DNA from: Giardia intestinalis
Lineage: Eukaryota
NCBI GenBank assembly: GCA_000002435.2
Contig: CM018789.1
Strand: one strand, 5' to 3'
DNA length: 64,000 nucleotides
Below the pieces are notes generated by a model. It did not search any database. It was not told where the DNA came from and worked only from the letters and a program-made list of their open reading frames with translations. A program made the translations under genes and the position numbers. Numbering within the stretch: position 1 is the first letter of the stretch; every line of letters starts with the position of its first letter. Below, piece by piece: positions 593 to 15,734 of this stretch.

Positions 593-3400
593 ATGATTAA
601 TAGATCTAGCAGGGCCGCAATGTTGCTACTAGTTCTTTGCTTTTTGATGAGCGCTCTCGCTGCACAATGCAAGGGGCACCAGCACTCCAACTGCGCAACC
701 GGCTGGTGCAGGGCGGTCCGTGGCGTCGAGGTCTGTATGAGGTGCAAAGCGGGCCACGTGCTGATCGACGGAGTGTGCGCTGATAACTCTGTTGTCTACG
801 GCGCGGGGTCCGCCTGCCAGATTCTAAACTGCAAGCAGTGTAACGCGGACAACACGCAGTGCGAGCAGTGCGAGGACGGATACACGCCGAGCGCCGGGAA
901 TACCCAGTGCAACGAGGACGCCGCGTCCGCCTGCCAGATTCTAAACTGCAAGCAGTGTAACGCGGACAACACGCAGTGCGAGCAGTGCGAGGACGGATAC
1001 ACGCCGAGCGCCGGGAATACCCAGTGCAACGAGGACGCCGCGTCCGCCTGCCAGATTCTAAACTGCAAGCAGTGTAACGCGGACAACACGCAGTGCGAGC
1101 AGTGCGAGGACGGATACACGCCGAGCGCCGGGAATACCCAGTGCAACGAGGACGCCGCGTCCGCCTGCCAGATTCTAAACTGCAAGCAGTGTAACGCGGA
1201 CAACACGCAGTGCGAGCAGTGCGAGGACGGATACACGCCGAGCGCCGGGAATACCCAGTGCAACGAGGACGCCGCGTCCGCCTGCCAGATTCTAAACTGC
1301 AAGCAGTGTAACGCGGACAACACGCAGTGCGAGCAGTGCGAGGACGGATACACGCCGAGCGCCGGGAATACCCAGTGCAACGAGGACGCCGCGTCCGCCT
1401 GCCAGATTCTAAACTGCAAGCAGTGTAACGCGGACAACACGCAGTGCGAGCAGTGCGAGGACGGATACACGCCGAGCGCCGGGAATACCCAGTGCAACGA
1501 GGACGCCGCGTCCGCCTGCCAGATTCTAAACTGCAAGCAGTGTAACGCGGACAACACGCAGTGCGAGCAGTGCGAGGACGGATACACGCCGAGCGCCGGG
1601 AATACCCAGTGCAACGAGGACGCCGCGTCCGCCTGCCAGATTCTAAACTGCAAGCAGTGTAACGCGGACAACACGCAGTGCGAGCAGTGCGAGGACGGAT
1701 ACACGCCGAGCGCCGGGAATACCCAGTGCAACGAGGACGCCGCGTCCGCCTGCCAGATTCTAAACTGCAAGCAGTGTAACGCGGACAACACGCAGTGCGA
1801 GCAGTGCGAGGACGGATACACGCCGAGCGCCGGGAATACCCAGTGCAACGAGGACGCCGCGTCCGCCTGCCAGATTCTAAACTGCAAGCAGTGTAACGCG
1901 GACAACACGCAGTGCGAGCAGTGCGAGGACGGATACACGCCGAGCGCCGGGAATACCCAGTGCAACGAGGACGCCGCGTCCGCCTGCCAGATTCTAAACT
2001 GCAAGCAGTGTAACGCGGACAACACGCAGTGCGAGCAGTGCGAGGACGGATACACGCCGAGCGCCGGGAATACCCAGTGCAACGAGGACGCCGCGTCCGC
2101 CTGCCAGATTCTAAACTGCAAGCAGTGTAACGCGGACAACACGCAGTGCGAGCAGTGCGAGGACGGATACACGCCGAGCGCCGGGAATACCCAGTGCAAC
2201 GAGGACGCCGCGTCCGCCTGCCAGATTCTAAACTGCAAGCAGTGTAACGCGGACAACACGCAGTGCGAGCAGTGCGAGGACGGATACACGCCGAGCGCCG
2301 GGAATACCCAGTGCAACGAGGACGCCGCGTCCGCCTGCCAGATTCTAAACTGCAAGCAGTGTAACGCGGACAACACGCAGTGCGAGCAGTGCGAGGACGG
2401 ATACACGCCGAGCGCCGGGAATACCCAGTGCAACGAGAACCCAGAAGCGCGGTGCAATACTCCCAACTGTAAGACCTGTGACAACCCCAAAACAGGCAAT
2501 GAAATCTGCACTAAATGTAATGATGGCGACTACCTCACCCCTACAAACCAGTGCGCACATGACTGCACAGCCATCAGCGGATACTACGGAGATACTGACA
2601 AGAAGTGTAAGCCATGCAGCCCTGAGTGCGCTGAGTGCGTTGGGCCAGCCAACAATCAGTGTAGTGCTTGTCCTGCAGGCAAGGCATTAACATATGGAGG
2701 TGGTGATCCTGCCCAAGGGGGCACCTGCGGGGATGCGTGTACGGCGGACAAGAACGGATGTAAGGTCTGTGGGGCAAGGATCGGCGGGACAGACTACTGC
2801 TCCCAGTGCTCAGTGGGTACTCAGGCTCCTCTGAACGGGGTCTGTACGGCCAACGCGCGTGCTCAGTTCTGCACACAAGTTACCAGTGGATCCTGCACGT
2901 CTTGTAGTGGGGGCTACTTCCTCAAGAATGGTGGCTGTTACCAGGCAGATAGACAGCCAGGCAAACAGATATGTACACTAGCTGATAGCAATGGTGGATG
3001 TCAGGCGTGTGCCAATGGTCTTCCTCCTAGTTCTTCTGACGTATGCCCCTCGTGTCATTTCACCTGCAAGACATGCTCGACCGCAGACATTGCAAATACT
3101 TGTACAACGTGTGCAACTGGGTACTACATGGTCGGATCAGGGCCAAACACATGTATTTCGTGTGAAAGTGACAGTGGAAGTGTCAAGGGAGTTGCTGGCT
3201 GCATGAGCTGCGCTCCTCCATCTAGCAATACTGGCTCCGTTCTCTGCTACCTCATGAACGGTGACAGTGCCGGCGGGAGCACGAATAAGAGCGGCCTTAG
3301 CACAGGTGCCATCGCTGGCATCTCTGTGGCTGTCATCGTCGTCGTCGGGGGACTCGTCGGCTTCCTCTGCTGGTGGTTCATCTGCAGGGGCAAAGCGTAG
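593..3400 (+). CDS. Variant-specific surface protein (VSP), 935 aa. It has an N-terminal hydrophobic signal region, 14 tandem 39-aa CXXC-rich repeats, a cysteine-rich body, a C-terminal TM helix and a CRGKA tail. The alternative ATG at 620 (MLLLVLCF...) is possibly the true start.
   Basis: ATG at 593 and stop at 3398-3400. Many CXXC motifs (CKQC, CEQC, CKTC). The C-terminus ...GAIAGISVAVIVVVGGLVGFLCWWFICRGKA matches the Giardia VSP hallmark. The VSP 3' element follows the stop. Confidence 0.9.
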   Translation: MINRSSRAAMLLLVLCFLMSALAAQCKGHQHSNCATGWCRAVRGVEVCMRCKAGHVLIDGVCADNSVVYGAGSACQILNCKQCNADNTQCEQCEDGYTPSAGNTQCNEDAASACQILNCKQCNADNTQCEQCEDGYTPSAGNTQCNEDAASACQILNCKQCNADNTQCEQCEDGYTPSAGNTQCNEDAASACQILNCKQCNADNTQCEQCEDGYTPSAGNTQCNEDAASACQILNCKQCNADNTQCEQCEDGYTPSAGNTQCNEDAASACQILNCKQCNADNTQCEQCEDGYTPSAGNTQCNEDAASACQILNCKQCNADNTQCEQCEDGYTPSAGNTQCNEDAASACQILNCKQCNADNTQCEQCEDGYTPSAGNTQCNEDAASACQILNCKQCNADNTQCEQCEDGYTPSAGNTQCNEDAASACQILNCKQCNADNTQCEQCEDGYTPSAGNTQCNEDAASACQILNCKQCNADNTQCEQCEDGYTPSAGNTQCNEDAASACQILNCKQCNADNTQCEQCEDGYTPSAGNTQCNEDAASACQILNCKQCNADNTQCEQCEDGYTPSAGNTQCNEDAASACQILNCKQCNADNTQCEQCEDGYTPSAGNTQCNENPEARCNTPNCKTCDNPKTGNEICTKCNDGDYLTPTNQCAHDCTAISGYYGDTDKKCKPCSPECAECVGPANNQCSACPAGKALTYGGGDPAQGGTCGDACTADKNGCKVCGARIGGTDYCSQCSVGTQAPLNGVCTANARAQFCTQVTSGSCTSCSGGYFLKNGGCYQADRQPGKQICTLADSNGGCQACANGLPPSSSDVCPSCHFTCKTCSTADIANTCTTCATGYYMVGSGPNTCISCESDSGSVKGVAGCMSCAPPSSNTGSVLCYLMNGDSAGGSTNKSGLSTGAIAGISVAVIVVVGGLVGFLCWWFICRGKA
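811..2448 (+). repeat. 14 head-to-tail copies of a 117-bp (39-aa) coding tandem repeat, ASACQILNCKQCNADNTQCEQCEDGYTPSAGNTQCNEDA. Copies appear nucleotide-identical, with the last unit ending NENPEA.
   Basis: Period 117 is seen directly (for example gcctgccagattctaaactgcaagcagtg at 811, 928, 1045 ...). The length difference between the two VSP ORFs, 935-428 = 507 aa, equals 13 x 39. Confidence 0.95.
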
Positions 3401-3419: not shown

Positions 3420-6073
3420 GCGTCACTGTATAAAGCATATTATACTGTGATGGGGCCCTGCCTGTGGGAGCGTCCAGAAATCCCACGAGTAAGTCTCGCC
3501 CACGTCTTGGCCAATCTGAGAGCGAGAACTGGTTGTAGACAGCAAGCAGGGACTCCTCTTTATTAGTGTATCTAAAACTTGGCACCTTCTCCGGTCGCTC
3601 TGTGGGTGTGTGCTCAGTCTGGGTGTGCACGTCGGCCGTTTCGGGGTTCAGGCCTTCTCGCAGACTCTCTGGTCCACCAGTGGCGCCTCTCCTTGGTCTT
3701 CCTTCACGGTGAGTGAAGCCCGGGCCGCTGTCTTTTTTAGATGCCCCCGTCTGTCAGGGGCTGCCATCGGGCTCTCCGCTGGCTGGGCCCCTCGGTGTCC
3801 GTCCGGCTGTGGTTCTGGGTCAGCGCTTCCACAGTCGCGGTCACTTGGGTCTCAGTGGGCCGGCTGGTGGGTGGGGCGGGGGTATGGGCGGTGAGGACTG
3901 GTGGGACCGGGTGGGGGCTGAGATTGGTGTCCGTATGTGCTCCTGGGTTCGGTGGGCCATTGCGGCGGTGGGTGATCCCCTCTCTGTTTGCCAAGGTGGT
4001 TGTGTCTGATCCCCAGCCTTCGTTGCACTCCCGAGACACAGGCACCGACGATCGTGTCGTGTCCCCTGACTGAGCGCCTCCCTTGGCCCCTGCATGCCTC
4101 GGGCAGTACTGCTGCTCTGGTTGACTGGTACATGAGGGATGAGGCAGGCCATCGCAGCCTCTCCTGCTACTCGCTGATGCTCTGTGCGGGTCTGCTGGGC
4201 CCCTGGCATGCCCTGTCCAGTGCCTCGACGTAGTTCACCTCGGCCAGCAGGGGTGTGGATGAGCCGGTGGATGGGATGGGTTCTCTCAGGCCTCTAGTGT
4301 GATGGCCCAGAAGACTGGCACGGTGGGGCACTGGTGGCTGCACTGTCCCCGTGGTCAGCTGTGCTGCTCCTGGTGGGTCCTTGTCATGGAGCGCTGTGTG
4401 TTGTTCATAGGCAGAGGTGAGCCTCCTTGGTTTCAAGATGCTCTACCATGCAGAGAGGAGCACGCTGAGGGTCACCCATACCTCACATCTGCTGTGCCCG
4501 TTCGGGAGTTCCCGGTGTGGTCCACCAGGACCTTGACACCTCTCGTGGCTCTGATGACCCCTCGAGGAGAGCCGGGGTGTCCTATGCCAGGGGAGGCGTG
4601 CACCCTCCTGCATGAGCTGGGACCCACTGCACTGCCCTCAAGGAGGTCTGCTATGAGAGGCAGTGGGATGATTGACGGCCCCAGAGTGCGGTGGAGGGTG
4701 CTCGTGGTCATCTCTTGTGATCGGGCATCACTCTGATGGCCAGCTCTGTGCCTGTGTGGTGCTCAGAGGCCACCTGTCTGCCTCATCGCCTGCTGGACAG
4801 CCGGGTCTCTTGTGGTGTCCGAAGGCCTCCTCACTCCTCTGGCTGCTGCCCCCTCGGGTCATCAATGAAGACAGTCGAGGCCAGCGGAGTCTTCGGTGAG
4901 TCTGGTGCCTGCCTGGGTGTCATGGGGGCTGGCAGCTGTCAGGGCTCTGCCACTGCTCACCTGCCTGGAGTGTGCCTCCCTTGGACCTACTGTGCTGCGT
5001 GAGTCCTCTGGCTTCCTATCAGGCCCTGACTGTGAGGGTGACCCCACCTGGTCCTCTGATGCCCCTGTGGATGAGCATAGCAATGTGTCTGATTGAGGAT
5101 CTCTGGTGCCCGTGTCTGTTGCTGCCTCTCGGGTGCTCGGGTAGTTGCCTGGCACTCTCGTATGGGGGCACAGTCAGCGTGTCCCGAGCAGACTCCAGTC
5201 CTCTCTGGGTCCACACAGTCTGTTCGTGTGTGGATGATCCTCCTGCACTCAGGTCCATCTGTGCACACTATCACTCAGCCTCGAGAGCAGGCCAGTGCAG
5301 TCGCCAGGGTTGCTGTCAGAGGGAGTCGTCTGCCACTACATCGCTCGAGCAGACTCTACAGATCAGGCTGGCTGCTGTGCACCCTCATGGCAGGGCTGCC
5401 TGACTCCCCTTGGTCATCCTCTCTGTCCCGGTGTGCACGGCTCCTGAGGGTTGTCTGGGTGGAGGCACTCACAGACCACGAGCACACAGAGGGGTGAGTC
5501 ATAGATGGACAGCCATCAGTCACCACAGCTGCGATCACCCCAGTCTATCGAGGGACCAGGGGCACATACAGACACCCACCACCCGGTCCCACCAGTCCTC
5601 ACCGCCCATACCCCCGCCCCACCCACCAGCCGGCCCACTGAGACCCAAGTGACCGCGACTGTGGAAGCGCTGACCCAGAACCACAGCCGGACGGACACCG
5701 AGGGGCCCAGCCAGCGGAGAGCCCGATGGCAGCCCCTGACAGACGGGGGCATCTAAAAAAGACAGCGGCCCGGGCTTCACTCACCGTGAAGGAAGACCAA
5801 GGAGAGGCGCCACTGGTGGACCAGAGAGTCTGCGAGAAGGCCTGAACCCCGAAACGGCCGACGTGCACACCCAGACTGAGCACACACCCACAGAGCGACC
5901 GGAGAAGGTGCCAAGTTTTAGATACACTAATAAAGAGGAGTCCCTGCTTGCTGTCTACAACCAGTTCTCGCTCTCAGATTGGCCAAGACGTGGGCGAGAC
6001 TTACTCGTGGGATTTCTGGACGCTCCCACAGGCAGGGCCCCATCACAGTATAATATGCTTTATACAGTGACGC

Positions 6074-6092: not shown

Positions 6093-7379
6093 CTACGCTT
6101 TGCCCCTGCAGATGAACCACCAGCAGAGGAAGCCGACGAGTCCCCCGACGACGACGATGACAGCCACAGAGATGCCAGCGATGGCACCTGTGCTAAGGCC
6201 GCTCTTATTCGTGCTCCCGCCGGCACTGTCACCGTTCATGAGGTAGCAGAGAACGGAGCCAGTATTGCTAGATGGAGGAGCGCAGCTCATGCAGCCAGCA
6301 ACTCCCTTGACACTTCCACTGTCACTTTCACACGAAATACATGTGTTTGGCCCTGATCCGACCATGTAGTACCCAGTTGCACACGTTGTACAAGTATTTG
6401 CAATGTCTGCGGTCGAGCATGTCTTGCAGGTGAAATGACACGAGGGGCATACGTCAGAAGAACTAGGAGGAAGACCATTGGCACACGCCTGACATCCACC
6501 ATTGCTATCAGCTAGTGTACATATCTGTTTGCCTGGCTGTCTATCTGCCTGGTAACAGCCACCATTCTTGAGGAAGTAGCCCCCACTACAAGACGTGCAG
6601 GATCCACTGGTAACTTGTGTGCAGAACTGAGCACGCGCGTTGGCCGTACAGACCCCGTTCAGAGGAGCCTGAGTACCCACTGAGCACTGGGAGCAGTAGT
6701 CTGTCCCGCCGATCCTTGCCCCACAGACCTTACATCCGTTCTTGTCCGCCGTACACGCATCCCCGCAGGTGCCCCCTTGGGCAGGATCACCACCTCCATA
6801 TGTTAATGCCTTGCCTGCAGGACAAGCACTACACTGATTGTTGGCTGGCCCAACGCACTCAGCGCACTCAGGGCTGCATGGCTTACACTTCTTGTCAGTA
6901 TCTCCGTAGTATCCGCTGATGGCTGTGCAGTCATGTGCGCACTGGTTTGTAGGGGTGAGGTAGTCGCCATCATTACATTTAGTGCAGATTTCATTGCCTG
7001 TTTTGGGGTTGTCACAGGTCTTACAGTTGGGAGTATTGCACCGCGCTTCTGGGTTCTCGTTGCACTGGGTATTCCCGGCGCTCGGCGTGTATCCGTCCTC
7101 GCACTGCTCGCACTGCGTGTTGTCCGCGTTACACTGCTTGCAGTTTAGAATCTGGCAGGCGGACCCCGCGCCGTAGACAACAGAGTTATCAGCGCACACT
7201 CCGTCGATCAGCACGTGGCCCGCTTTGCACCTCATACAGACCTCGACGCCACGGACCGCCCTGCACCAGCCGGTTGCGCAGTTGGAGTGCTGGTGCCCCT
7301 TGCATTGTGCAGCGAGAGCGCTCATCAAAAAGCAAAGAACTAGTAGCAACATTGCGGCCCTGCTAGATCTATTAATCAT
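6093..7379 (-). CDS. Variant-specific surface protein (VSP), 428 aa. It has the same N- and C-termini as the 593..3400 VSP but only one 39-aa repeat unit.
   Basis: The ORF-track protein starts MINRSSRAAMLLLVLCFLMSALAAQCKG and ends ...WWFICRGKA, identical to the left VSP apart from 13 missing repeat units. Confidence 0.9.
   Translation of the reverse strand: MINRSSRAAMLLLVLCFLMSALAAQCKGHQHSNCATGWCRAVRGVEVCMRCKAGHVLIDGVCADNSVVYGAGSACQILNCKQCNADNTQCEQCEDGYTPSAGNTQCNENPEARCNTPNCKTCDNPKTGNEICTKCNDGDYLTPTNQCAHDCTAISGYYGDTDKKCKPCSPECAECVGPANNQCSACPAGKALTYGGGDPAQGGTCGDACTADKNGCKVCGARIGGTDYCSQCSVGTQAPLNGVCTANARAQFCTQVTSGSCTSCSGGYFLKNGGCYQADRQPGKQICTLADSNGGCQACANGLPPSSSDVCPSCHFTCKTCSTADIANTCTTCATGYYMVGSGPNTCISCESDSGSVKGVAGCMSCAPPSSNTGSVLCYLMNGDSAGGSTNKSGLSTGAIAGISVAVIVVVGGLVGFLCWWFICRGKA
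7045..7161 (-). repeat. Single 117-bp unit in the right-arm VSP, matching the 14-copy array at 811..2448.
   Basis: Coordinate mapping from the left arm. The right VSP protein contains one ...SACQILNCKQCNADNTQCEQCEDGYTPSAGNTQCNENPEA. Confidence 0.8.
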
Positions 7380-11899: not shown

Positions 11900-12424
11900 C
11901 TAATCATCGGTGAGATCAATAGTGCTATTGCTAAGATCAATGACTGGAACCCGCTTCAGAGCCCGTTGGTGCGCAATGTATCTTACCTCTTGGTAGTAGT
12001 TGTGGCAGGCACGGATTGTAAGTCCAGCGGCCTGGTTAATTCGGTGCGCTTGTGCGTGCCAGACGGGCCCGTGATGCACTCGCTCGAACACCTTCAGTCT
12101 GAAAAGGTAGGCGTGGATCATCTCATGCACCAGCACGTCGAGCAGGTCGTGTTGTGAACGATATTGGAGTAGAGGTGCAGATAGGATAATTACAATAGGA
12201 CTATGCTCTTCTGTTCGCGTCCCTCTGTATTTGCATAGACCTGCAGAACGTGTTAGCCTATTGCTCCAATGAACCACAACATCTCTCAGGCAATTGTCGA
12301 AAAAAGCCTCGTTGAAATGCCTAAAGAGCGCGTGCACATCACCAAAAGGCCAGTGTTGTGTTTCTAGTTCCTGAGAGGTAGGTGGTGGGGCAGCAAAAAA
12401 GTCCAGGAGGGGGTTGCTATCCAT
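11900..12424 (-). CDS. Minimal SprT/Spartan-like zinc metalloprotease (DNA-protein crosslink repair protease family), ~174 aa. The track ORF begins at a GTG at 12697; in-frame ATGs at 12583 and 12565 are alternative starts, but the SprT domain begins right after the ATG at 12424.
   Basis: ...FNEAFFDNCL...WSNRLTRSAGLC...LLDVLVHEMIHAYLF...HGPVWHAQAHRIN...TIRACHNYYQEV closely parallels the human SPRTN core (LLHEMIHAYLF, HGPEF, HRIN). The HExxH motif is present. Confidence 0.65.
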   Translation of the reverse strand: MDSNPLLDFFAAPPPTSQELETQHWPFGDVHALFRHFNEAFFDNCLRDVVVHWSNRLTRSAGLCKYRGTRTEEHSPIVIILSAPLLQYRSQHDLLDVLVHEMIHAYLFRLKVFERVHHGPVWHAQAHRINQAAGLTIRACHNYYQEVRYIAHQRALKRVPVIDLSNSTIDLTDD

Positions 12425-12428
12425 TTTT
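12425..12428. promoter_or_regulatory. Four-nucleotide A/T spacer (TTTT within ccaTTTTTatg) between the divergent start codons of the SprT-like (-) and Nei-like (+) genes; presumed shared bidirectional initiator.
   Basis: Minus ATG at 12424..12422 and plus ATG at 12429..12431. Giardia promoters are short A/T-rich initiators abutting the start codon. Confidence 0.4.
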
Positions 12429-13847
12429 ATGCCAGAGCATCCTGAGGTTCGAGCCTTCGCAGAACGCATAACGTTTGAGGCAGAGCACACTCTCTTTACT
12501 AACGTCTCTACTTCGAGGGCGTGTGTGTATAAGGCCCTCCCACCTTTGTTCCTTGATGATTCCATAAAAGTAGCATTTACCATAAGGTGCGAATCTCGAG
12601 GCAAGCAGCTCCGAGTTGACCTGGCTCGGGCAGCTGATCCACCTAGGAATGAGGCAAAGAGTATTTTTGTGCGTCTGAAAAGAAATACATCTGACACCTC
12701 AGAGACACCCTATGATTTGTGCAAAACAACCGCTTTAAGCCGCCCCTGGGAACACTCAGATCACGCTGTGGCGCTTACCATACCAACCAGTATCGTGATT
12801 GGCCTGGGATTAGCAGGCTGTATCAACACCTTCTTAACCCCAGAGGAAGCTTTGAAGTCTAACGCACATCTCTTGTTTGAGGCATCTGATGCTGTGTTAG
12901 CAGTATGCTCGCCACGGCCAGAGACCATGTACTGGCGAGTAGGAGACTTCGACCATGCACGGTCCCCTGATCCTGTGGCACAGTACCTAGACTATGTGTC
13001 CAAGATACTGTCCAAACTGTCACATATTCCTATAGGTCTTGACGGGTCTTTCATTGTGCCACCCAAGTCGATATTTTCACAACCCATATGCCGGCTTCTT
13101 TTGTCTCAGGAATTGTTCAACGGAGTAGGGAATTACCTACGAGCAGAGGCCATGCACCGACTTCTTATTCACCCTTTCACCCCAAGCGTCTATGTGTTTG
13201 AAGAGCTTATCCATTGGGTTCATGACACCGTGCGAGAAACCCCTCGATTCCACAACTTGAGTAACAAGTGGAGAAGTCTTGCCGAAAAGAATGTCTCTAT
13301 TATCGAGACCAAGTGCCCACTCATCCCGATGATCAGAAGGCTATGTGAGGAGGCCTATGCTGTTCTGGATGATCACAGACTCTTTTCGGAGTGGCTTTTA
13401 TGCTATAAGAAAGCAACTAATTGCATTCTTGATTCCGGGGGCAGAGAAGTTTGGTTCTTCGAAAAGCTAGTCGCAAACAAATCCAGTCATGCAAGTGAGC
13501 ACGGCGATAAGAAGAATTCTGCTGAGAAGCCAGATGCATGTACCCTGTCAGAGCTCATACTGTCCTCTGAACCTAGTCTTAAAAAGGTTGCAGTACAGCA
13601 ACTGGCTACGTCAAACGCAGAAAATGTCATTCTTAATAGCACGGAGAATGATGCTGATGTCAGCCAGCTAGACATCTTGGAATACTCTCGCAAAGACCTC
13701 CTTCGACGAGGCACGGTACTCGACAATCTTCCAATTGATTCTAGAAACGAGTCAGCTAGTCGATGGCAGGACAAGATTGTTCGGAAGAGTACTGTCCAAC
13801 AATTACATGACGCTCGAACGTTTCAAGCAAGCCTCCAGTCGAAGTAA
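12429..13847 (+). CDS. Fpg/Nei-family (NEIL-like) DNA glycosylase/AP lyase, 472 aa. True start is the ATG at 12429 (MPEHPEV...); the track start at 12414 is upstream of it.
   Basis: The N-terminus MPEHPEVRAFAERI matches the Fpg/Nei catalytic Pro2-Glu3 signature (MPELPEV, MPEGPEL). The H2TH motif LLSQELFNGVGNYLRAEAMHRLLIHPFTPS matches E. coli Fpg [26 protein letters not shown]. No C-terminal CxxC zinc finger is seen. Confidence 0.65.
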   Translation: MPEHPEVRAFAERITFEAEHTLFTNVSTSRACVYKALPPLFLDDSIKVAFTIRCESRGKQLRVDLARAADPPRNEAKSIFVRLKRNTSDTSETPYDLCKTTALSRPWEHSDHAVALTIPTSIVIGLGLAGCINTFLTPEEALKSNAHLLFEASDAVLAVCSPRPETMYWRVGDFDHARSPDPVAQYLDYVSKILSKLSHIPIGLDGSFIVPPKSIFSQPICRLLLSQELFNGVGNYLRAEAMHRLLIHPFTPSVYVFEELIHWVHDTVRETPRFHNLSNKWRSLAEKNVSIIETKCPLIPMIRRLCEEAYAVLDDHRLFSEWLLCYKKATNCILDSGGREVWFFEKLVANKSSHASEHGDKKNSAEKPDACTLSELILSSEPSLKKVAVQQLATSNAENVILNSTENDADVSQLDILEYSRKDLLRRGTVLDNLPIDSRNESASRWQDKIVRKSTVQQLHDARTFQASLQSK

Positions 13848-13865: not shown

Positions 13866-14399
13866 CTATATCTGCCTGACCATTATCTTATCATCCAAGG
13901 AGTACAGAAGGTGGTCGCTATACAGCTGTACAATGGGAGGCGGCTCTGTTTCAGAGATGGGCATTGTGCTTCTACAATACTGGTCTACAATCTCTAACTG
14001 ATCAGATACCTTCATGATCGTGTAGTGGTTTGCAAGAAAGAGGGCAGAACGGGCGTTGAGTAATCGTGTAAACGGGGGTTGGTGACACAGCTGGCTGTTC
14101 AACTGTTCAACCCTCTGCACCCTCAGCGGCTGCAGGCTGCCTCTCATGGCCAAGAGGTTGAGCCCGTCGGTTCCGACGGTGTAGAGCACTTGCTTGCAGG
14201 TGAGCGCGGAGTCGAAAATGGGATACGAGGGGGCCAGCTGGGCGTGTGTGTGAAGAAGGGCGTTCCTTATCAGATCCCAGACCTTCACAGACCCGTCGAT
14301 GCTGGTGGAAACCAGCGCGCTGTCGGCGACGTGCAGCGACGTCACCGCGTGGCTGTGAGAAAGGGTCGTGGCGGGGTGGGGCGGAAAAGCGTGCACCAT
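13866..14399 (-). CDS. Small ORF (177 aa) with two WD40-like blades (SIDGSVKVWDL...). It may be a fragmentary or decayed WD-repeat gene. The opposite-strand ORF 14079..14495 is Gly/Arg-rich and likely an artefact.
   Basis: ATG at 14399. WD-like GS..WD motifs are present, but the ORF is too short for a full propeller and the upstream context is GC-rich rather than A/T-rich. Confidence 0.25.
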   Translation of the reverse strand: MVHAFPPHPATTLSHSHAVTSLHVADSALVSTSIDGSVKVWDLIRNALLHTHAQLAPSYPIFDSALTCKQVLYTVGTDGLNLLAMRGSLQPLRVQRVEQLNSQLCHQPPFTRLLNARSALFLANHYTIMKVSDQLEIVDQYCRSTMPISETEPPPIVQLYSDHLLYSLDDKIMVRQI

Positions 14400-14523
14400 G
14401 CGGGAGTCGGACCCGCCCCAACAGCTTGGAAGGCTGTCATGCTAGCCGATACACCAATGGTGCCCGGCGCGCCGCATAAACAGCGGATAAATTAGTATGT
14501 GCTTTGAATGGTCTGGTTCAGAT

Positions 14524-15098: not shown

Positions 15099-15734
15099 TC
15101 ACCCTACGAGCACAGCAGATCCTTTGATTACATGGTCCTCAACGGCATCGAAGTGGACTGCGAGTTGATCATCTACCGCCACAACAGTCTCTGTATCGAA
15201 AGATGTGATAGTGGTAGCTTGGAGAAAGCGTACAACCACAACCTTGCTACGGAGAAGGATAAGCTGTCGACTAAGGGTTTCGCGGAGCTCCTTTTGGAAG
15301 GAGGCTTCTGGGTCCAATTCTGTTGCATGGTTGGACAGTATGGCTTTAATGGGTTGAAAAATGGTTGTATTGAGCAACTGGTGCGACAACTCAAGAAAGG
15401 CTCTGGCGGCATCCTGCTCATTTTCAGTGAGGTACTTTTGTAGCTCCGTCTGCATATATAGAAATGGCTTATCGCTGAGCTTTGAAAGCCGTAGACGCAC
15501 ATAGTCTTCGAAAATGAAGCGTAGCCGCTCCATGTGTAGGTGAACCATGTCTCTATGAACCTTGTCATACATTGCTATTCTGTCTTGAGATTTCGACAGG
15601 TATTCCTTAACTGTATCAAGCACCTCTTGCTCGCGCGGAAGAACGATGGGACTATAGCGCTCGTTGTTCCACAGCTGCAGAAACCTGTCGTATGCCCGTT
15701 TATTCTGTTCACTGGCCTCAAGTAGCCCGGCCAT
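15099..15734 (-). CDS. SLD5: GINS complex subunit Sld5 (GINS4), 211 aa.
   Basis: FLQLWNNERYSPIVLPREQEVLDTV vs human LEQAWMNEKFAPELLESKPEIVECV. VHLHMERLRFIFEDYVRLRL vs IHQMEMERIRYVLSSYLRCRL. The C-terminal VVVRFLQ...IKGSAVLVG vs VFLRVRE...VASGAVQLI. Confidence 0.7.
   Translation of the reverse strand: MAGLLEASEQNKRAYDRFLQLWNNERYSPIVLPREQEVLDTVKEYLSKSQDRIAMYDKVHRDMVHLHMERLRFIFEDYVRLRLSKLSDKPFLYMQTELQKYLTENEQDAARAFLELSHQLLNTTIFQPIKAILSNHATELDPEASFQKELRETLSRQLILLRSKVVVVRFLQATTITSFDTETVVAVDDQLAVHFDAVEDHVIKGSAVLVG

Follow-up and report, generated by a model that had tools for sequence, protein, structure and literature searches.

A probable NEIL1 orthologue in Giardia duodenalis with altered DNA-contact loops

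In a window of 64 000 nucleotides from Giardia intestinalis (contig CM018789.1 of GenBank assembly GCA_000002435.2), which is the whole stretch of DNA that was analysed, the product of the gene at positions 12429..13847 is very probably the NEIL1 orthologue of Giardia duodenalis. It would be a bifunctional DNA glycosylase/AP lyase of the Fpg/Nei superfamily, and the gene, judged from comparisons of the protein with its homologues, would have been inherited vertically since the diplomonad ancestor or longer. The gene is an ordinary and known one, already named in public databases and noted in the literature, and the gain in annotation is correspondingly small: its product is identical (100%) to the NCBI/UniRef entry ‘Endonuclease VIII-like 1 [Giardia duodenalis]’, and ‘Nei homologs in ... 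Giardia’ were remarked on by Burroughs and Aravind, 2014 (PMC4075521). A 90% identical copy is present in isolate P15 and copies of 71–76% identity in three further assemblies, and the literature that we searched contained no enzyme assay or other biochemistry on the Giardia protein. The features that might repay experiments are only two, namely the altered DNA-contact loops and a short motif in the C-terminal tail.

Reading frame and start codon

The coding sequence and the two codons on which its catalytic assignment turns are as follows.

12429..13847, plus strand: complete coding sequence of the NEIL1-type glycosylase, 472 amino acids plus stop (stop codon 13845-13847)
12432..12437, plus strand: codons of Pro2 and Glu3, invariant in 14 homologues; putative nucleophile and catalytic acid, by reference to Fpg/Nei chemistry

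The original prediction, made from the DNA letters, had put the protein at about 470 residues with proline as residue 2, an assignment that would fail if the true start lay upstream. The translation of 12429..13847 gives 472 residues and begins MPEHPEV, the second codon after the ATG being CCA. The program-listed open reading frame opens at a TTG at 12414, which is the sole alternative start, but an in-frame TAG at 12363, 22 codons before the ATG, closes the frame upstream and there is no earlier in-frame ATG between this stop and the ATG at 12429. MPEH opens every orthologue in the homologue alignments, and the junction CATTTTTATG in the start region is unchanged in five lineages of the G. 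duodenalis complex; proline is therefore residue 2. The in-frame stop and the orthologue starts thus favour the ATG at 12429, and an upstream start is ruled out.

Assignment to the NEIL1 type

A phmmer search against PDB sequences gave human NEIL1 as the best match (E 1.3e-14, over residues 119-343), with the best bacterial Fpg at 0.03. We then used as a clade profile the alignment A2 of eight Giardia-lineage sequences, searched against the PDB; it reached human NEIL1 at E 1e-31, so that the similarity lies nowhere near the limit of profile significance. Elsewhere the same profile matched Arabidopsis Fpg (3e-6), mimivirus Nei1 (7e-6; PDB 3A42/3A46, a related zincless-finger enzyme) and Thermus Fpg (4e-5), followed by E. 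coli Nei and NEIL2 (both 8e-3) and NEIL3 (0.03), and its matches to bacterial Fpg/Nei were confined to the H2TH region (E 4e-5 to 0.04). Pfam matches to H2TH (PF06831, 3.6e-5), Neil1-DNA_bind (PF09292, 0.003) and Fapy_DNA_glyco (0.026) were all under the gathering thresholds; a precomputed match to PF09292 exists in the G. muris protein and in P0007 and P0008.

The AlphaFold2 model is confident at residues 1-70 and 116-346, with pLDDT mostly 80-97 in the core, and poor at 71-115 and 348-458. Searched with Foldseek against the PDB, its best 50 matches are all human NEIL1, with E down to 3e-18 and a target-normalised TM of 0.75-0.84. Model and matches together describe the two-domain Fpg/Nei fold, an N-terminal beta-sandwich followed by a helical C-terminal domain that ends in a beta-hairpin finger. 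The domains and residues were placed as follows.

12429..12629, plus strand: N-terminal beta-sandwich, first part (residues 1-67), aligning with NEIL1 1-63; pLDDT 64-91
12603-12605, plus strand: codon of Lys59 of the RGK motif, aligned with human NEIL1 Lys54
12630..12782, plus strand: insertion (residues 68-118) after the Lys59 strand; pLDDT <50
12783..13067, plus strand: remainder of the N-terminal domain (residues 119-213); pLDDT 78-95
13080..13238, plus strand: H2TH motif (residues 218-270), Pfam H2TH 3.6e-5; modelled helices pLDDT 86-94
13371..13466, plus strand: zincless finger (residues 315-346), Neil1-DNA_bind at 315-343; beta strands 331-334 and 340-343
13443-13445, plus strand: codon of Arg339, the zincless-finger arginine, aligned with human Arg277
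13467..13844, plus strand: C-terminal tail (residues 347-472), mostly disordered by prediction with low-confidence helices; pLDDT 26-51

The catalytic module is thus residues 1-346, broken by the 68-118 insertion. The original prediction of an Fpg/Nei-type enzyme with Glu3 and an H2TH motif is borne out by these searches and by the 14 homologues, in which M1, P2, E3, E6, R57, G58, K59, D335 and R339 are invariant, as are Q227, F230, N231, G232, G234, N235, Y236, L237, R238, A239, E240 and R244 of the H2TH motif. The H2TH-region string LLSQELFNGVGNYLRAEAMHRLLIHP, which the prediction had picked out, is present at residues 223-248 and includes the invariant FNGVGNYLRAE.

The prediction had also noted that a zinc finger was missing, and this proved correct: the protein has 11 cysteines, with CxxC or Cx2-4C spacing nowhere, so the four-cysteine finger (CxxC...CxxC) of bacterial Fpg/MutM or Nei is absent. 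NEIL2 and NEIL3 have zinc fingers, and NEIL3 also bears GRF/RanBP fingers and uses an N-terminal nucleophile other than proline; Pfam detected no zinc-finger domain in the Giardia protein, which carries Pro2, and its sequence relationship to NEIL2 and NEIL3 is weak, as the profile values given above indicate. The suggestion that some 250 residues formed a divergent C-terminal half, either a zincless NEIL1-type finger or a novel extension, held only in part. Residues 230-346 are an ordinary NEIL1 C-terminal domain with the zincless finger at its end (PF09292, Arg339 and the hairpin), and the extension, although it exists, starts only at residue 347 and is 126 residues long. In the structure prediction residues 230-472 divide at the same point, the core being confident to residue 346, with the hairpin formed by 331-334 and 340-343, and the tail falling to pLDDT 26-51.

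Compared with human and other vertebrate NEIL1 (PDB 1TDH, 5ITX, 6LWx), the Giardia protein has the same two-domain fold (TM about 0.8), Pro2-Glu3, the RGK lysine, a nearly identical H2TH motif (FNG[VI]GNYLRAE), a zincless finger with its arginine and a non-catalytic C-terminal tail. The differences are an identity of only about 21-30%, His4 for Gly4, the 51-residue insertion after the lysine strand, a tail that is near neutral and unalignable, and the changes in the DNA-contact loops discussed below (Leu for Met81, Glu for Arg118, loss of Phe120 and deletion of the capping loop).

Distribution and descent

Orthologues are found in G. muris, Spironucleus salmonicida, Hexamita inflata and the free-living fornicate Dysnectes brevis. 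The G. muris protein is named ‘Endonuclease VIII-like 1’ in the databases, whereas those of Spironucleus and Hexamita are entered as ‘Formamidopyrimidine-DNA glycosylase’. All share with the G. duodenalis protein MPEH, RGKQ, the G-L-x-G loop, a second loop without Arg/Phe, the missing capping loop and the zincless finger, but they are shorter (247-349 residues; G. muris 349, Spironucleus 279, Hexamita 290), have no counterpart of the 68-118 insertion and end in tails of 25-72 residues against 126-133 in the G. duodenalis complex. Choanoflagellates, the amoebozoan Vermistella and many animals also have proteins of the NEIL1 type. When bacteria and archaea were scanned with one genome for each species, 11 loci emerged whose short, zincless NEIL1-type products are 24-31% identical to the Giardia protein; their sources are MAGs of Poribacteria, Saprospirales, Flavobacteriaceae and Marinimicrobia. 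One related protein (P0012) sits on a phage-like contig. The short bacterial or phage-like proteins (260-280 residues) resemble the Giardia enzyme in their zincless C-terminal hairpin, H2TH motif and Pro2-Glu3; unlike it, they have neither tail nor insertion and keep GMSG, VDVRRFG and a GGGxL capping loop.

Neighbour-joining trees with bootstrap, which are distance-based over 251-253 columns and reach only 0-30% at the deep nodes, separate NEIL1-type proteins from classical Fpg/Nei with 100% support. Diplomonads are monophyletic at 100%, or at 52-75% with Dysnectes included, and the branching runs from Dysnectes through Hexamita plus Spironucleus to the Giardia lineage. Because the orthologues branch in this way, in roughly species order, we conclude that the gene has been passed down vertically from the diplomonad ancestor or from earlier still. 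The bacterial and phage short proteins group together at 93%; in the same trees, support is lacking for joining the Fornicata to this bacterial group (0%) or to Holozoa.

The original prediction had left the choice between a vertical NEIL-like origin and a bacterial Fpg acquired by lateral transfer, and the trees and profiles settle on the NEIL1 type. A recent transfer of a bacterial Fpg/MutM or Nei gene into Giardia might be entertained, given that Fpg/Nei genes are patchy among eukaryotes and that some bacterial MAGs encode zincless NEIL1-type proteins of the 24-31% identity mentioned above, yet we regard it as extremely improbable. Bacterial Fpg (MutM) and Nei share with the Giardia protein the superfamily, the fold and the Pro2-Glu3 chemistry, but they carry the CxxC...CxxC zinc finger where the finger here is zincless, fall on the other side of the 100% split and score with the profile at least 25 orders of magnitude poorer than NEIL1; on these grounds an origin from bacterial Fpg is ruled out. 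The bacterial NEIL1-type proteins, for their part, form a separate clade, with 0% support for its grouping with the Fornicata, and retain the RRFG sequence and capping loop that the Fornicata lack, while the gene is spread across diplomonads in species-tree order. Vertical descent of a NEIL1-type gene is accordingly the reading that we adopt.

Altered DNA-contact loops

The loops in question lie in the N-terminal domain and ahead of the finger.

Within 12783..13067, plus strand: first void-filling loop GLGLAG, with Leu128 where the human enzyme has Met81
12909-12935, plus strand: second void-filling loop SPRPETMYW (residues 161-169), with Glu165 (12921-12923) at the position of human Arg118

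In NEIL1 the void is filled from two loops, and the orphan base is held in place by Arg118 (PMC10711445). In the Giardia protein the triad Met81/Arg118/Phe120 is replaced by Leu128, Glu165 and a gap (or Met167), and the lesion-capping loop of the human enzyme (about 239-252) has been lost by a deletion of about 12 residues between Leu313 and Asp314. The triad is a signature of function, and homology to NEIL1 does not depend on it. The human capping loop contains the edited K/R242 and Tyr244. The changes extend throughout the clade. The first loop reads G-L-x-G in all eight Fornicata sequences, as against G-M-x-G in other NEIL1-type proteins; in seven of the eight the second loop has [SH]-[PC]-[EQD]-[TS] where other NEIL1-type proteins, bacterial ones included, have R-R-F-G, the exception being Dysnectes with V-G-S; and the GGxGY.. 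capping loop is missing from all eight. The second loop reads P-E-T in G. duodenalis and, for example, P-Q-T, P-E-S or C-E-S elsewhere, with Arg/Phe in none of the eight, and P164, E165 and T166 are invariant in alignment A2. Two further differences set the Fornicata apart: position 4 is His rather than Gly, Leu or Tyr, and the RGKE of the other proteins reads RGKQ. By comparison, the metazoan, choanoflagellate, amoebozoan and bacterial proteins of the NEIL1 type retain the Met, RRFG and capping-loop features.

Because the triad is changed and the capping loop deleted, the substrate range and the preferred DNA context may differ from those of NEIL1. NEIL3 and NEIL2 prefer single-stranded, bubble or fork DNA or act mainly as AP lyases. 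Like the Giardia protein, both have a second void-filling loop without the Arg/Phe pair; the loop is truncated in the two enzymes, and in NEIL3 an acidic residue, Asp133, stands at the Arg118 position and has been proposed to enforce the preference for single-stranded DNA by charge repulsion (PMC10711445). By analogy, the acidic residue in the Giardia loop suggests a similar preference for DNA context. This leads to a refinement of the NEIL1 assignment that we put forward tentatively and consider somewhat doubtful, namely that the Fornicata possess a functionally shifted NEIL1 subtype whose main targets would be single-stranded, bubble or fork DNA, or whose main activity would be that of an AP lyase. 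The missing Arg and Phe, the acidic Glu165 and the missing capping loop would all fit such a shift, as would the link between Asp133 and single-strand preference in NEIL3. These arguments are drawn purely from alignment, however; Tyr168 or Met167 might serve as the wedge instead, and E. coli Nei has other void-filling residues yet acts on duplex DNA. The wider version of the idea, that the Fornicata enzyme is a distinct and ancient NEIL1 subtype, with replaced loops and a docking motif in its tail, acting on single-stranded, fork or AP-site DNA, is in our estimation equally possible and equally short of likely.

Insertion, tail and selection

The insertion (51 residues, 68-118) and the tail (126 residues, 347-472) are, among the sequences compared, specific to the G. 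duodenalis complex: the former is absent from G. muris, Spironucleus and Hexamita, and the tails of these proteins are much shorter. Other lineages have unrelated inserts at the 68-118 site, for example one of about 230 residues in P0008, and a Pfam zf-GRF match (PF06839) in another protein, P0010, sits at the same site as read from the alignment. The tail has no Pfam match, and no homology was found to the basic NEIL1 tail; its pI is 6.3, with near-neutral charge, compared with 11.5 for a rodent NEIL1 tail.

We calculated dN/dS between the window and the P15 orthologue, the only pair with unsaturated synonymous sites (dS about 0.5). The whole gene gave 0.087; the core stood at 0.046, the N-terminal part and the insertion both at 0.10 and the tail at 0.136. 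The insertion and the tail, like every region of the gene, are under purifying selection.

One element of the tail recurs outside the G. duodenalis complex.

13821..13835, plus strand: tail motif FQASL (residues 465-469), clade consensus F-Q-x-[AS]-[LF]

The consensus, which was defined post hoc from these same sequences, occurs in the tails of G. duodenalis, G. muris, Dysnectes and two further relatives and is degenerate in hexamitids; it was found in none of 173 other NEIL1-like tails, and its chance occurrence is 0.0002-0.004 per shuffled tail. Beyond it the fornicate tails are not alignable. The motif probably docks a partner protein. We considered a PIP box and rejected it, since the Q-x-x-L half alone fits and the aromatic pair is missing.

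Proposed mechanism

From the conserved residues and the established chemistry of Fpg/Nei enzymes we infer that the protein would act at the start of base excision repair of oxidised bases. Enzymes of the NEIL1 subfamily are glycosylases and beta,delta-lyases for oxidised pyrimidines, Fapy and hydantoin lesions. After removal of the initiator methionine, the amine of Pro2 would attack C1' of the flipped-out damaged nucleotide to form a Schiff base, and Glu3 and Lys59 would assist base release and beta,delta-elimination. The phosphate backbone would be held by the H2TH motif together with Arg339 of the zincless finger, with the tail motif probably docking its partner.

It might be objected that catalysis has been lost and that this NEIL1 remnant survives to bind DNA or to serve as a scaffold, seeing that it no longer has the DNA-intercalating residues or the capping loop and that its long, non-basic tail with a docking-type motif suggests a role in protein interaction. 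However, none of Pro2, Glu3, Lys59 and Arg339 has changed among lineages that have diverged far enough to saturate synonymous sites, and dN/dS in the core is about 0.05, and we therefore consider a dead enzyme very unlikely. An active glycosylase/AP lyase remains our interpretation.

The divergent SprT/Spartan-like neighbour

The glycosylase gene abuts a gene on the opposite strand.

11900..12424, minus strand: SprT/Spartan-like gene, 174 codons, Pfam SprT-like 1.3e-25, with a HEMIH motif
12425..12428, no strand assigned: spacer TTTT, 4 nucleotides between the glycosylase ATG and the SprT-like ATG

A longer open reading frame of 265 amino acids runs on the minus strand at 11900..12697, but it was rejected as a gene: its last 174 codons alone, from the ATG at 12424, are real, and the protein has 174 residues in four other lineages. 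With a spacer of only 4 nucleotides, promoter elements, if there are any, have room only within the coding sequences on either side. Over the first 15 codons of each gene synonymous codon identity is raised, at 0.69-0.70 compared with 0.53-0.55 overall, which is a weak signal for such embedded promoters.

The arrangement invites the idea of a co-regulated repair pair sharing a bidirectional promoter, in which the glycosylase would make covalent intermediates and the Spartan-like protease would remove DNA-protein crosslinks. In its favour, the 4-nucleotide spacing of the two ATGs is kept in five lineages of the G. duodenalis complex (including L004-L007), down to 71% protein identity, and the neighbour, besides carrying HEMIH, matches the human Spartan protease domain (E 1.3e-22). 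Against it, the adjacency is missing in G. muris, whose upstream neighbour is an Sld5-like gene, in Spironucleus and in another relative (L002), and Giardia genes are so tightly packed that close divergent pairs are expected by chance. We judge a functional pair improbable and attribute the arrangement to compaction of the genome, allowing co-regulation a minor chance.

Significance

According to a view cited in PMC4075521, the Nei subfamily arrived on the stem lineage of animals. The occurrence of NEIL1-type proteins in diplomonads, Dysnectes, an amoebozoan, choanoflagellates and bacterial MAGs would imply that the family is older and more widespread than an acquisition at that point.

For the family, the diplomonad enzymes amount to a natural experiment in which the catalytic residues have been kept while the void-filling residues and the capping loop have changed, and these changes could inform how Fpg/Nei enzymes choose between duplex and single-stranded DNA. 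For the organism, Giardia meets oxidative and nitrosative stress from its host and from nitroimidazole drugs, and its few base-excision enzymes are for this reason of some practical interest. Should the shift in function proposed for the Fornicata subtype be true, Giardia would possess, within a reduced repair set, a NEIL1-derived enzyme for single-stranded, fork or AP-site DNA.

The divergent gene pair

The 472-residue NEIL1-type glycosylase gene of the window lies head-to-head with a gene for a SprT/Spartan-like metalloprotease, recognized by its HEMIH motif and by a match to human SPRTN, whose protease domain aligned with the 174-residue protein at an E value of 1.3e-22. Only TTTT separates the two ATGs. 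This divergent layout is kept in five lineages of the G. duodenalis complex, and was absent from the G. muris and Spironucleus loci that we compared.

11900-12424, minus strand: SprT/Spartan-like metalloprotease gene, 174 aa
12380-12424, minus strand: first 15 codons of the SprT-like gene, raised synonymous codon identity
12429-12473, plus strand: first 15 codons of the glycosylase gene, raised synonymous codon identity

Across the five lineages, synonymous codon identity was somewhat higher over the first 15 codons of both genes (0.69-0.70, compared with 0.53-0.55 gene-wide), a modest increase. The SprT coding sequence also contains an invariant A-run, which is located 30-40 nt before the glycosylase ATG; the window has GCAGCAAAAAAGT there, and four of the five lineages have GCAGAAAAAAAGT. 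Both features are consistent with promoter elements that lie within the coding regions.

Short and fused NEIL1-type proteins

Short zincless NEIL1-type glycosylases, of 260-280 residues, were found on a phage-like contig, which is densely filled with small ORFs on the same strand, and in MAGs of Poribacteria, Saprospirales, Flavobacteriaceae and Marinimicrobia. In the tree, the phage-like and bacterial proteins form a separate clade with 93% support.

L003 (phage-like contig), 1574-2377: short zincless NEIL1-type glycosylase
L009-L019 (bacterial MAG loci): short zincless NEIL1-type glycosylases

Unusual domain fusions were also seen outside the window, in environmental eukaryote-like sequences (homologues P0015, P0235, P0236 and P0010). 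One type joins the NEIL1-type domain to a uracil-DNA glycosylase domain (578-714 residues); the other is a NEIL1-type protein that has a zinc finger of the GRF type (Pfam PF06839), and from the alignment we read this finger as occupying the same loop as the Giardia 68-118 insertion.

Surface-protein genes

The GC-rich first 8 kb of the window holds two cysteine-rich genes, inverted relative to each other, that encode identical N- and C-terminal parts; the 39-residue repeat ASACQILNCKQCNADNTQCEQCEDGYTPSAGNTQCNEDA occurs in about 14 tandem copies in the first and once in the second.

593-3400, plus strand: variant-specific surface protein type, CRGKA end
6093-7379, minus strand: variant-specific surface protein type, CRGKA end

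The downstream flank

Comparison with the orthologue from isolate P15 of the G. duodenalis complex suggests that the WD40-repeat gene downstream of the glycosylase is truncated: it matches only residues 110-296 of the 295-residue P15 protein, and its reading frame is interrupted by a stop codon. DNA homology to the P15 contig ends at about 14387, at what is either the breakpoint of a rearrangement or a join made during assembly. A PUF gene follows the WD40 gene in P15, in three further contigs of the complex (L005-L007) and in G. muris; none was found in the window.

about 13866-14450, minus strand: WD40-repeat gene, apparently truncated
15099-15734, minus strand: 211-aa ORF, about 1.3 kb downstream of the NEIL1 gene
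L001 (G. muris contig), 5302-5943: Sld5/GINS-like gene, 213 aa, directly upstream of the NEIL1 gene

Beyond the truncated gene, the 211-residue ORF resembles the G. muris Sld5/GINS-like gene in size, the one property compared. If the two are related, this would point to a local rearrangement between the species.
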